Positions 23,408 through 25,564 of a stretch of 64,000 bases of DNA are shown in pieces. The notes beneath the pieces are model-generated. The model was not told the DNA's origin and did not search any database. It saw nothing but the letters and a program-made list of their open reading frames with translations. This stretch comes from Spirulina sp. (GTDB taxonomy: Bacteria; Cyanobacteriota; Cyanobacteriia; Phormidesmidales; Phormidesmidaceae). The stretch lies in contig JBIPSI010000012.1 in assembly GCA_044070495.1 (NCBI GenBank), forward strand, positions 32,001 through 96,000. Direction: 5' to 3'. Position 1 is the stretch's first letter; each line of letters starts with the position of its first letter. The translations under genes were made by a program, and so were the position numbers.

Positions 23408-23614
23408 CTAAAAAAGCAAAATAAACGACCACGTAGCAAAAGACTGTGATCCCTTTAAGGCCAAGGAATTTTTCTCGTGAGCCCACGGGATACTGCTATC
23501 TCCACCACCGCTGATATGAGTTGATTCTTGATCAGTCAAATCGCGAATATAACTGCTGGAATGTTTTTGGAGAGCAGTGACATTATTAGATTTAGGCGTT
23601 TGTCGGGGTTGCAT
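23408..23614 (-). CDS. Double-glycine leader peptide P8
   Basis: ...IRDLTDQESTHISGG | GDSSIPWAHEKNSLALKGSQSFATWSFILLF; GGAGG upstream. Confidence 0.75.
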   Translation of the reverse strand: MQPRQTPKSNNVTALQKHSSSYIRDLTDQESTHISGGGDSSIPWAHEKNSLALKGSQSFATWSFILLF

Positions 23615-23645
23615 TATCTATTTCCTCCAGATATTGATTGGAATC

Positions 23646-23924
23646 TCACCAAAGCAACGTGCCTCGAATTACGCCACCTTTGTTGGCTTGTCTTAAGGGA
23701 CTCAATTCGGCTTGAAATTCTTCTCGAAGTCGAACATGTGGTGTTGTTGAATACTCCCTCCCACTATCTACTTGAGTAACAACCTTAGTAAAAGCGTCAA
23801 ACATACCGCCTCGGATGTCACCTTGAGTAGTTTCGGGCATTTCTTCCCAGAGATGGCTATTTTGGCTTTGCGGATGCTTGAAGTTTTGAGGTTTAATTAC
23901 CGAGTTTTTGCAGAAAAATTTCAT
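23646..23924 (-). CDS. Double-glycine leader peptide P7 (core begins like phycocyanin beta)
   Basis: ...LWEEMPETTQGDIRGG | MFDAFTKVVTQVDSGREY...GGVIRGTLLW. Confidence 0.75.
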   Translation of the reverse strand: MKFFCKNSVIKPQNFKHPQSQNSHLWEEMPETTQGDIRGGMFDAFTKVVTQVDSGREYSTTPHVRLREEFQAELSPLRQANKGGVIRGTLLW

Positions 23925-24020
23925 CACTAACCATCCTTGACAAACTAGCAAATTCTCAGCCGAACAACTGAACTGCCGAGGAGTCCCTGAAGTCGTTTTT
24001 AAGGTTATGCGATCGCACGG

Positions 24021-24284
24021 CTACTGGATGAGATGGGTTAGCTCATGGGCAAGGAGATTGCGACCAACAGAAACTGTGCCACCTCTTCCAGGACCATCGG
24101 AGGGGAACCTGAAGCCCAGATCACTAACTTCAGGTAAGGTGGAAAACAGTAGGATAGTGCCTCGGATTTCCCCACCTGCGTAGGCTTGCATTTGGTCTTC
24201 TGTCAAGTCTGTGGTTCCAATGGCAGACAGCGGATCTAACGAATTTGGATGTTGTGAAATTGAGTTTCTGGTTTTCTTGAACAT
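24021..24284 (-). CDS. Double-glycine leader peptide P6 (PsaA FX-loop-like segment and HExxH tail)
   Basis: ...TDLTEDQMQAYAGG | EIRGTILLFSTLPEVSDLGFRFPSDGPGRGGTVSVGRNLLAHELTHLIQ; AAGGAG upstream. Confidence 0.8.
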   Translation of the reverse strand: MFKKTRNSISQHPNSLDPLSAIGTTDLTEDQMQAYAGGEIRGTILLFSTLPEVSDLGFRFPSDGPGRGGTVSVGRNLLAHELTHLIQ

Positions 24285-24339
24285 GAATGACTCCTTATGT
24301 AATCACTTTTCGGCAAGATAATCCCGGAAAGTGTAGGTA

Positions 24340-24540
24340 TTAGCCTCCTCCGATGCCAAGACCAAGGCCAACAGCACCTTTGTTCTTGGTGGAAGACCGA
24401 TCTAATTCTGCTGTTATAAAAATCAAAGAAAGTGCAATTGTTGCACCTCCTTCAAGAGTTCTTGATTGCTCGTCATTTAATTCTTGAAAGAGAGCAGGAT
24501 TAATCTGGGTACGCTTGGACTTTTGATTGGAAGAATCCAT
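24340..24540 (-). CDS. Double-glycine leader peptide P5
   Basis: ...LFQELNDEQSRTLEGG | ATIALSLIFITAELDRSSTKNKGAVGLGLGIGGG; AGGAG upstream. Confidence 0.8.
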   Translation of the reverse strand: MDSSNQKSKRTQINPALFQELNDEQSRTLEGGATIALSLIFITAELDRSSTKNKGAVGLGLGIGGG

Positions 24541-24575
24541 TTTCCAATTCTCCTGAGGTTTAGTGATTTTCTGTT

Positions 24576-24854
24576 TTACTGCGGTCTTGGCATTGCAGAA
24601 ACAAAGGGCAGTCGGGTGAAGAAGGTTGGGGCTTCAGCGACAACCGCATCGCCACCAAGATCAAAGATAAGGCAATCAACAATAGAGCCACTAGGTTCGT
24701 CAAAGATAGCAGAGTTCTCTGAAGGTTGATTCAGCGCGAAGATCACAGCTTTGCTAACGCCGCCTGCTAAGGTTCCTGACTGTTCATCGGTCAGAGGTTG
24801 TAGCAAGTTGAGATTGATCTGGTTGAGATTGGGTTGTTGATTAGGAGAAATCAT
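24576..24854 (-). CDS. Double-glycine leader peptide P4
   Basis: ...LLQPLTDEQSGTLAGG | VSKAVIFALNQPSENSAIFDEPSGSIVDCLIFDLGGD... Confidence 0.8.
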   Translation of the reverse strand: MISPNQQPNLNQINLNLLQPLTDEQSGTLAGGVSKAVIFALNQPSENSAIFDEPSGSIVDCLIFDLGGDAVVAEAPTFFTRLPFVSAMPRPQ

Positions 24855-24861
24855 TGAAGAA

Positions 24862-25047
24862 TTACCCTCCTATTCCTAATCTGCCAGACAAACTCGATGT
24901 GGCTTGTGCAGGAATATAGGCGAAGGGATTGGCAAAGAGCAGCGGCCCGCCACCCGATATGGACTGCGACTGACTACTATCAAGTGATTCCCATAATTGA
25001 CTGTTTTTGAATTGCGGCTTAGGTGGTTTAGGTGGGTAATATTTCAT
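24862..25047 (-). CDS. Double-glycine leader peptide P3
   Basis: GGAGG then MKYYPPK...LWESLDSSQSQSISGG | GPLLFANPFAYIPAQATSSLSGRLGIGG. Confidence 0.8.
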   Translation of the reverse strand: MKYYPPKPPKPQFKNSQLWESLDSSQSQSISGGGPLLFANPFAYIPAQATSSLSGRLGIGG

Positions 25048-25118
25048 GGTTTTACCTCCATTAAACAAGCGTATTTATTTAGATTGGAACATGTCGGAAA
25101 TCGAGATATGGGAATATT

Positions 25119-25274
25119 TTACTCATACCCACCAACGTTTATATGGGGTTTGGTTGTTTCCCATCTAGTCTTTCCTCCAGCCGAAATAGTCTGTGACTGA
25201 TCTGTGTTTAGAGGTTGCCACAGTTGATCGTTTTGAAGTTGTAGCTTAGCTGATTTCGGTGAATGATGTTTCAT
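25119..25274 (-). CDS. Leader peptide P2, 51 aa, absent from the ORF track (core resembles the EF-Tu N-terminus)
   Basis: Manual translation: MKHHSPKSAKLQLQNDQLWQPLNTDQSQTISAG | GKTRWETTKPHINVGGYE*; leader clearly paralogous to P1 and P3. Confidence 0.8.
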   Translation of the reverse strand: MKHHSPKSAKLQLQNDQLWQPLNTDQSQTISAGGKTRWETTKPHINVGGYE

Positions 25275-25366
25275 GGTTTTGGCTCTATAGAACTATGTGA
25301 GTAGGCAGTGGTTAGTAAATGCTGCGAAGCCAACCATGATATTGGCTTCTTTTCGTTTTATGTAGT

Positions 25367-25564
25367 CTATGCCTGACGTCCTGGCCCATCACAGGGGAAT
25401 GATGAAAAGCCAAAATCTTTTTTGGGCGGTTCAGCACGAGCAAAAGGATTGGCAAATAGCAACACTCCACCTGAGATAGACTGTGACTGCTCTGGGGTGA
25501 GGGGCTGCCAAGGCGCAGCCTTTGAAGACTGAGCGTTAGTCGATTTGCGATGGTGATATTTCAT
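25367..25564 (-). CDS. Double-glycine leader peptide P1 (PsaB FX-loop-like)
   Basis: MKYHHRK...WQPLTPEQSQSISGG | VLLFANPFARAEPPKKDFGFSSFPCDGPGRQA. Confidence 0.8.
   Translation of the reverse strand: MKYHHRKSTNAQSSKAAPWQPLTPEQSQSISGGVLLFANPFARAEPPKKDFGFSSFPCDGPGRQA

Follow-up and report, generated by a model that had tools for sequence, protein, structure and literature searches.

The stretch of DNA analysed here (hereafter the window) comprises 64,000 nucleotides of a Spirulina sp. genome (assembly GCA_044070495.1, contig JBIPSI010000012.1, positions 32,001 to 96,000 of the forward strand). It carries an array of nine co-oriented short open reading frames (ORFs) on the minus strand, between positions 23408 and 26147, named P0 to P8 in transcription order (Table 1). 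An earlier note on this DNA had described eight of them, in the span 23408..25564; all eight were recovered at these positions and on this strand, and the ninth, P0, lies just beyond that span. All nine genes start with ATG, and eight are preceded by a Shine-Dalgarno-like motif 9-17 nt upstream. The intergenic gaps range from 7 to 96 nt, with the sole exception of the 403 nt separating P0 from P1. The GC content is 45-47% in the array, against 55-63% in most of the window.

The N-terminal 32 to 40 residues can be aligned across the nine peptides, with a conserved Q and conserved hydrophobic positions. All nine of these N-terminal segments end in GG (with one additional G in P2 and P3), and all correspond to double-glycine leaders, defined as leaders of about 15-40 residues ending in GG, GA or GS after a conserved pattern. 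A hidden Markov model (HMM) built on the leaders gave 45-59 bits for each of the nine peptides. When used to search the 5.3 Mb genome, this profile retrieved the nine array ORFs and nothing else, so that the shared leader described in the earlier note is confirmed and extends to P0. The P8 leader was weak when omitted from the model and clear (E 5.8e-13) with the nine-member model. Beyond the GG, almost every core contains a short, strongly hydrophobic stretch, and several cores have a glycine-rich tail.

The array sits between two pairs of genes, an AraC-family regulator and an ATP-binding cassette (ABC) exporter on one side, a subtilase and a HlyD-family adaptor on the other. The Peptidase_C39 domain of the exporter gave 124 bits over model positions 2-132 of 133, which identifies a cognate C39 exporter, and Cys and His positions, which we take to be the catalytic residues, are visible in its N-terminal sequence. 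Two C39 genes were found in the whole genome, the island exporter being one of them. The adaptor matched HlyD_3 with 64 bits and TIGR01843 with 182.6 bits (under its cut-off of 208.65), and was assigned to the HlyD-type adaptors. Thus, Pfam domains bear out the earlier assignment of a C39 ABC exporter and HlyD to the same island. The subtilase, which follows P8 on the minus strand after a gap of 44 nt, matched TIGR03895 over its full length with 736 bits (cut-off 421), which places it in the PatA/PatG family; it is the only PatA-like match in this genome.

Table 1. Position of the peptide genes and of their neighbours in the window. A parent is a longer protein that a core stretch matches.
Feature	Position	Strand	Length (aa)	Description
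HlyD-family membrane-fusion adaptor	19168..20535	-		Pfam HlyD_3
PatA/PatG-family subtilase	21432..23363	-	643	TIGR03895; Pfam Peptidase_S8, PatG_D, PatG_C
P8	23408..23614	-	68	Divergent leader; core parentless in searches
P7	23646..23924	-	92 (from Met at 23924)	Phycocyanin beta N-terminus, OprB-porin-like stretch, copy of P6 junction motif
P6	24021..24284	-	87	PsaA stretch with both Cys replaced, then C-terminal eCIS_core/DUF4157 stretch
P5	24340..24540	-	66	Hydrophobic stretch, then glycine-rich tail; no parent in searches
P4	24576..24854	-	92	60-residue core; stretch in common with a 204-aa putative lipoprotein
P3	24862..25047	-	61 (from Met at 25047)	C-terminus matches the C-terminus of an M50 (site-2-type) protease
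P2	25119..25274	-	51	Core opens with a stretch resembling the EF-Tu N-terminus, weak in the window copy
P1	25367..25564	-	65	PsaB stretch in core
P0	25968..26147	-	59	GG leader; core with two Cys; parentless in searches
AraC-family regulator	26472..27371	+		Pfam HTH_18, HTH_AraC; divergent from the array, overlaps the exporter start
Peptidase-containing ABC exporter (C39 + ABC membrane + ATPase)	27368..29515	+		Pfam Peptidase_C39, ABC_membrane, ABC_tran

For comparison with host proteins, the cores were cut after the GG and searched by blastp-short against the host ORFs of at least 100 aa, the locus itself being removed. The best score was then set against those of 200 shuffles of the same core, and tails and heads of the cores were tested separately with 300 shuffles. 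The earlier note had pointed to a likeness of P1 to PsaB, of P6 to PsaA and of P7 to the phycocyanin beta N-terminus. Each of the three stood, as none of the 200 shuffles scored as well in any of these cases. P1 shares 15 of 18 residues with the host PsaB (E 8.6e-5 in tblastn), with one inserted residue and a shortened end, and gave 17.2 bits with Pfam PsaA_PsaB. P6 gave 24.2 bits with the same family (PF00223, cut-off 23.3) over model positions 531-554 of 711, and matched NCBIfam psaA with an E value of 2.6e-5; both Cys of its PsaA stretch are replaced. The stretch found in P6 and P1 presumably corresponds to the loop binding the Fx iron-sulfur cluster. Both peptides are copied fragments and not members of the PsaA/PsaB family, whose proteins have about 700 residues and 11 helices.

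Second stretches were detected in two of these cores. The C-terminal stretch of P6 resembles Pfam eCIS_core/DUF4157 (E 0.003), and the tail alone matched several host eCIS_core proteins with none of the 300 shuffles as good; we take this stretch to be the HExxH motif. The tail of P7 alone matched two OprB-type porin paralogues, again with 0/300 shuffles as good. P3 matched the C-terminus of an M50 protease (2/200 shuffles as good), a resemblance absent from the earlier note. When analyzed with Pfam, the parents were assigned to OprB (one paralogue with an SLH domain in addition), Peptidase_M50, eCIS_core and Phycobilisome. The heads of the P1, P3 and P6 cores, taken alone, were not significant in the shuffle test.

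The likeness of P2 to EF-Tu, also proposed earlier, fared less well. EF-Tu was indeed the best match of P2, with 7 of 14 residues identical to host residues 3-16, but 31 of the 200 shuffles scored as well, which is not significant alone. The resemblance is strengthened only by the P2 orthologue described below. No host match was obtained for P0, P4, P5 and P8, for which 30, 147, 128 and 149 of the 200 shuffles, respectively, were as good.

At the sequence level, these comparisons show at least five cores to be mosaics of short stretches matching conserved cyanobacterial proteins, with PsaB, PsaA, the phycocyanin beta N-terminus, the EF-Tu N-terminus, the M50 C-terminus, an OprB segment and the eCIS_core motif as parents. 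Judged by the shuffled cores, the match of cores carried by an export leader to conserved-protein stretches is well beyond chance, as had been claimed, for P1, P3, P6 and P7 and for the second stretches of P6 and P7. It was too strong to consider all cores as mimics of housekeeping proteins, since P0, P5 and P8 are parentless, P4 matches a putative lipoprotein (P0028, see below) and eCIS_core is not a housekeeping family. Between the copied stretches and the host genes, third codon positions agreed only in 2/9 to 12/19 of cases, indicating that these stretches are not recent copies of host genes.

The specificity of these matches was assayed on an unrelated family of cyanobacterial GG peptides, the CTB family, of which 23 distinct peptides from 10 of the 201 genomes searched were tested whole. 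For 21 of the 23, between 16 and 174 of the 200 shuffles were as good. The two others, which are near-identical, gave at most 1/200, against a host ORF that has no Pfam match and is probably non-coding. None of the 23 control peptides matched a named protein. The CTB family bacteriocin model (NF038167, cut-off 32 bits) had no match in the whole genome; among the nine peptides, P4 came closest, with a sub-threshold 13.9 bits (E 0.046), and the others had no match.

Some core segments recur within the array. The C-terminal end of P7 is a copy of the motif spanning the P6 cleavage site, and the first eight core residues are common to P1 and P3, which we regard as signs of recombination among array members. 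Repeat analysis of the array detected leader paralogy only, without repeats at cassette boundaries. Neither the promoter and terminator scans, which gave nothing above shuffled background, nor Rfam, which had no match over the whole window, revealed further elements. The gap between P0 and P1 (25565-25967) holds a 31-nt imperfect inverted repeat at 25797-25862, with 77% complementarity and a 4-nt loop, which might serve as a terminator or in transcript processing, or else be what is left of a lost peptide gene.

The position of the stretches within the cores was then compared with their position in the parents. In P7, the phycocyanin beta start directly follows the GG; in the Protein Data Bank (PDB), seven out of ten matches of P7 were phycocyanin beta chains, aligned from residue 1. 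P3 and the host M50 protein have the same tail right before their stop codons. Conservation of the tail extends over the class: the M50 protein has an orthologue in 58 of 61 genomes, and among 30 tails compared, 25 share this end register. The P2 orthologue aligns to EF-Tu residues 2-20 from the residue beside the GG site, EF-Tu being its sole PDB match (E 0.21). Thus, three of the seven stretches with a named parent occupy the terminus that they have in the parent protein. The N-terminal ones lie exactly at the GG in P7 and within about one residue of it in P2, and the C-terminal one lies right before the stop codon in P3.

With the nine peptides as queries, a collection of 5.8 billion proteins gave 21 matches. 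Nine of these were the window's own, and the remainder fall into families orthologous to P1, P3, P4 and P5; P6 relatives were obtained from a search of representatives. The leader profile, run against 1.84 billion representatives, gave 10 matches at E values up to 0.001, including six family members and a doubtful short GG peptide (P0027). Three long matches were treated as spurious, P0023 and P0026 being repeat proteins and P0022 the third. Scanning genome contigs with the P1 and P3 families yielded one true locus (L017) and one doubtful Firmicutes match (L018); no relatives were found in the genome contig scan with the P4 family or in the viral contig scan. The leader search of 60 relatives gave two weak matches (L002 and L003), of which L002 is spurious. 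Searching 36 genomes of the genus did not reveal the array, nor did a search of 25 genomes of the family reveal the subtilase.

Two related arrays could be compared with that of the window. On a metagenome contig (L012, with the identical L015), relatives of P3, P4, P5 and P6 lie between the AraC and exporter genes and HlyD. L017, from a metagenome-assembled genome (MAG) labelled Elainellales, contains relatives of P0, P1, P6, P2, P7 and P8, one extra peptide and the subtilase. The AraC gene adjoins the array in L012 and L017 too. The extra peptide of L017 (10260-10460) is a tenth kind of GG-leader peptide, not present in the window, with a glycine-rich C-terminus and no host parent (33/200 shuffles as good). 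In L012 the subtilase is cut to about 73 codons (10876-11097; 7295-7516 in L015) and followed by a 435-aa ORF, a 463-aa relative of which sits between the subtilase and HlyD in L017.

The earlier note asked whether homologous arrays carry housekeeping-like stretches as well, and the orthologues, from one MAG and several metagenomes, do keep those of PsaB, PsaA, phycocyanin beta with porin, M50 and EF-Tu. The P1 relatives P0004 and P0005 contain an exact 18-residue PsaB stretch, and the P1 orthologue (P1') matched PsaB with 0/200 shuffles as good. Relatives of P6 keep the PsaA stretch, Cys-less in all of them (0/200 for the P6 family); in some members the GG is changed to SS. The P7 orthologue keeps both stretches (0/200). 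The M50 tail is kept by the P3 relatives, with 0/200 shuffles as good for three of them and 1/200 and 69/200 for the others. Finally, the P2 orthologue is nearer to EF-Tu than the window P2 (6/200), and an EF-Tu-like pattern is found in both although their cores are identical at only 7 of 17 positions.

Several observations indicate that the island has moved horizontally. The subtilase is 90% identical in the L017 MAG, which belongs to another family in the GTDB taxonomy, and was not found in the 25 genomes searched of the host's own family, whereas PsaB is 88% identical between host and MAG, and the flanking genes differ. From its gene content, we infer that this mobile island is a multi-peptide export system, made up of nine GG precursors, a C39 exporter, HlyD, an AraC regulator and a PatA/PatG-type subtilase.

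Selection was estimated by codon comparison of ten orthologue pairs, as the ratio of nonsynonymous to synonymous substitutions (dN/dS). The counts are small and consistent among pairs, and the P2 core is saturated. Ratios ranged from 0.09 to 0.37 for cores against 0.22 to 0.75 for leaders. The core values were 0.12 for P4, 0.22 for P5 and 0.33 for P8, and the P0 core, identical at 25 of 27 positions in the L017 orthologue, gave 0.11; for comparison, the subtilase gave 0.15. P0004 and P0005 have differing leaders and identical cores. By this measure, the cores are at least as constrained as the leaders, and usually more so. The codon comparisons show that the peptide genes are real and, judging from these ratios, under purifying selection. 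Chance similarity, or decaying gene debris from which no peptide is expressed, could be invoked because the GC content of the region is below that of its flanks and the P2 match is not significant alone. This explanation is largely refuted: chance is rejected by the shuffle controls, the same genes occur in independent assemblies with dN/dS well below 1, and the genes have ATG starts, a Shine-Dalgarno-like motif in eight of nine cases and a conserved leader beside a cognate exporter.

By analogy with the transporter family, the C39 domain of the exporter would cut the leader at the GG during export, and HlyD would bridge to an outer-membrane channel, with free cores released outside the cell. 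With termini and loops matching those of near-invariant proteins, these cores would compete for the binders of such proteins, occupying sites on assembly partners, on terminus-recognising proteases or on proteins that bind the copied loops or termini. The targets would be neighbouring cyanobacteria, in which the motifs are near-invariant. Such functional mimicry by competition is the reading that we favour, though we hold it tentatively. It is favoured by the terminal register, by the persistence of the stretches over saturated synonymous divergence and by the lack of such matches in the control family.

A number of results weigh against mimicry by competition. The cores of P0, P5 and P8 are conserved without a parent in the host, and neither a PDB match for P0 nor a parent for P5 among the longer proteins searched was found. 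The 60-residue core of P4, the most conserved of all, has the putative lipoprotein P0028 as its sole partner (21 of 23 residues shared), and no relative of P0028 was found in this genome or in 200 other cyanobacterial genomes searched. Copies also drift, with an insertion and a lost motif end in the window P1, the Cys replaced in the P6 family and GG changed to SS in some of its members, so exact parent identity is not strictly maintained. Moreover, only copies of invariant motifs would be recognisable after long divergence, and the preference for conserved motifs could therefore be partly an artefact. Most parents are cytoplasmic or thylakoid proteins, so that exported peptides would need an uptake route. 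Finally, no immunity-like gene was recognised among the island ORFs, and the subtilase is truncated in L012, where the peptides are intact.

As to P0028 itself, it is a 204-aa protein with a lipoprotein-like start, known from a single 3981-nt contig. Gasdermin-D, the best PDB match of P4 (E about 1), was rejected as a parent. An atlas look-up of the P4 core returned scores below 0.9, to be taken as leads only.

The main alternative is that fragment capture simply supplied raw material. Pieces of genes would have been recombined in frame behind the leader, and the peptides would act through their hydrophobic or glycine-rich stretches as ordinary unmodified class II bacteriocins or microcins, or as EbfG-like matrix peptides, their likeness to the parents being irrelevant. 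We regard this as possible, if rather doubtful. The mosaic cores with their junctions and the reuse of segments (the P7 end and the core start of P1 and P3) are in its favour, as are the hydrophobic stretch of almost every core and the several glycine-rich tails. It would also account for the parentless P0, P5 and P8, the non-housekeeping partner of P4, the drift of the P6 and P1 motifs and the detection bias towards invariant motifs, and the location of the island inside an exopolysaccharide gene cluster in this genome also counts in its favour. However, the parental terminus is occupied by three of the seven stretches with a named parent, two of them at or near the leader cleavage site, which would not be expected from random capture. 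P2 and its divergent orthologue also both keep an EF-Tu-like pattern. In L017 the island has other neighbours, and its polysaccharide context is hence not conserved.

A more specific form of mimicry by competition is likewise possible but doubtful. The array would then be an exported library of interfering peptides, each joining a short hydrophobic element to exact copies of interface loops or ends from near-invariant cyanobacterial proteins, that would be taken up by rival cyanobacteria and poison assembly or terminus recognition. Its targets might, with the same doubt, be photosystem I, phycocyanin, EF-Tu, the major porin and the site-2-type protease.

The nature of the parents also raises the question of a signal. 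The photosystem I core, phycocyanin, EF-Tu and the major porin are expected among the most abundant proteins of each compartment, and the cores might imitate peptides released by lysis (ends and loops of abundant proteins) as a danger or kin cue for neighbours or for the producer, without blocking any protein. Peptide-binding receptors typically require free termini, which are preserved here, and an AraC regulator is linked to the array. We nevertheless consider this unlikely, as the three loci examined showed no link of the island with a receptor, a two-component system or a peptide importer, and the M50 protease and the eCIS_core proteins are not abundant.

The subtilase suggests another alternative, in which it would cut or cyclise the cores as in cyanobactin biosynthesis. 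The peptides would then be precursors of small modified products, i.e. RiPPs (ribosomally synthesised peptides with post-translational modifications), and their likeness to parents would be irrelevant. The protease is full-length, directly follows P8 and keeps its 90% identity in the MAG array, and a 50%-identical homologue elsewhere stands beside a LanM-like gene and a GG-type precursor. Yet the island contains no heterocyclase, oxidase, prenyltransferase or second protease, nor were domains of a YcaO heterocyclase or of a second protease or macrocyclase found in the ORFs at 10-40 kb. None of the nine peptides matched a cyanobactin-precursor family, conservation extends over whole cores rather than short internal cassettes, and in L012/L015 four peptide genes are intact beside a subtilase of about 73 codons. 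This explanation therefore seems very unlikely. The RiPP class label used in the earlier note is itself doubtful, because the only enzyme is a protease and modification genes are absent; from their features, the peptides look more like the unmodified class II bacteriocin/microcin type.

The neighbourhoods of seven PatA homologues (47-53% identity) contained no peptides of this leader family. The 50%-identical homologue, at L059 (G124:C127, 3324-13844), lies near a 1116-aa ORF that is, by eye, a putative LanM-type lanthipeptide synthetase, and near a precursor bearing a long leader ending in GG. PatA/PatG-type proteases of cyanobacteria may thus serve GG-type peptide clusters beyond cyanobactins.

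Class II microcins and bacteriocins combine short GG-leader precursors, a C39 ABC exporter and a membrane-fusion protein in one locus, with several tandem precursors, some of which have glycine-rich tails. The island resembles them in its GG leaders, cognate C39 exporter, HlyD-type adaptor, tandem precursors and some glycine-rich cores. It differs from them by its cores, which are patchworks of conserved-protein stretches, by the attached PatA/PatG-type subtilase and by the lack of a recognised immunity gene. As for cyanobactin pathways, the island subtilase matches their maturation-protease family (PatA/PatG) over its full length, but a heterocyclase, a second protease or macrocyclase and a PatE-type precursor are missing and the leaders are of the GG type.

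Mimicry by a secreted bacterial peptide has a precedent in RaxX of Xanthomonas oryzae, which is reportedly exported through a peptidase-type ABC system (RaxB/RaxA). RaxX is reported to be a small precursor from a dedicated cluster, the mature form of which imitates the plant PSY hormone (PMC6637879). It is a single tyrosine-sulfated hormone mimic, whereas the island encodes nine peptides of unmodified appearance, with copies of segments from large conserved proteins. In Synechococcus elongatus PCC 7942, four small GG-motif proteins (EbfG1-4) are secreted via a C39-peptidase transporter (PteB) and support biofilm formation (PMC4997328). Hence, cyanobacterial GG peptides need not be antibiotics. 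The abstract of that study reports no housekeeping-protein likeness for EbfG, in contrast to the island cores; the comparison was made by description and not by sequence. Wang et al. (2011; PMC3140520) found clusters of the C39/HlyD type, with several GG precursors and highly diverse cores, to be widespread in cyanobacteria. Little core conservation is reported there, unlike in the island, and the words photosystem, housekeeping, PatA and subtilisin do not occur in the main text.

A literature search, motif string included and with subscription journals and supplementary files outside its range, found no description of cores made from conserved-protein stretches. The type of export system is known, but export-tagged peptides patched from such stretches are, as far as this search shows, a novel design among secreted bacterial peptides. 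To our knowledge, cyanobacterial GG-leader peptides are common, yet a function is known for almost none of them. In the island, several cores can be read as copies of highly conserved loops and ends of essential proteins. Should the copies act as mimics, they would represent a new principle for peptide weapons or signals, because a target cell could not change the copied motifs, and they could provide leads for peptides directed at bloom-forming cyanobacteria. In the interfering-peptide reading, this would amount to a bacteriocin strategy by self-motif mimicry, hard for targets to escape through mutation. If the mimicry reflects history only, the locus still illustrates the assembly of new secreted peptides out of existing gene pieces, a matter relevant to the debated origin of hypervariable peptide cores.

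The surroundings of the array contain additional features. The interval from the subtilase to HlyD contains two small ORFs without annotation. In this interval, a candidate 91-aa ORF on the minus strand (21088-21363) has a tandemly repeated acidic stretch and GGG; nothing similar in sequence was seen at the corresponding position of L017. The island is embedded in a large exopolysaccharide locus (about 30000-55000 and 14500-19000) with many GT1/GT2/GT4 glycosyltransferases, a Stf0-type sulfotransferase, an ABC-2 transporter pair, Poly_export/SLBB and Wzz-type proteins and an exosortase (EpsH). Further away, a NACHT-domain protein (58549-60864, minus strand) adjoins a hybrid sensor kinase with GAF, PAS, receiver and Hpt domains (55593-58865, minus strand). 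The two long ORFs overlap as listed, so that one of them probably starts farther downstream. Finally, an 891-aa protein encoded on the minus strand at 11946-14621 fuses a GT4 glycosyltransferase, an EAL domain (cyclic di-GMP phosphodiesterase) and a response-regulator receiver, an unusual combination that ties polysaccharide synthesis to cyclic di-GMP signalling.

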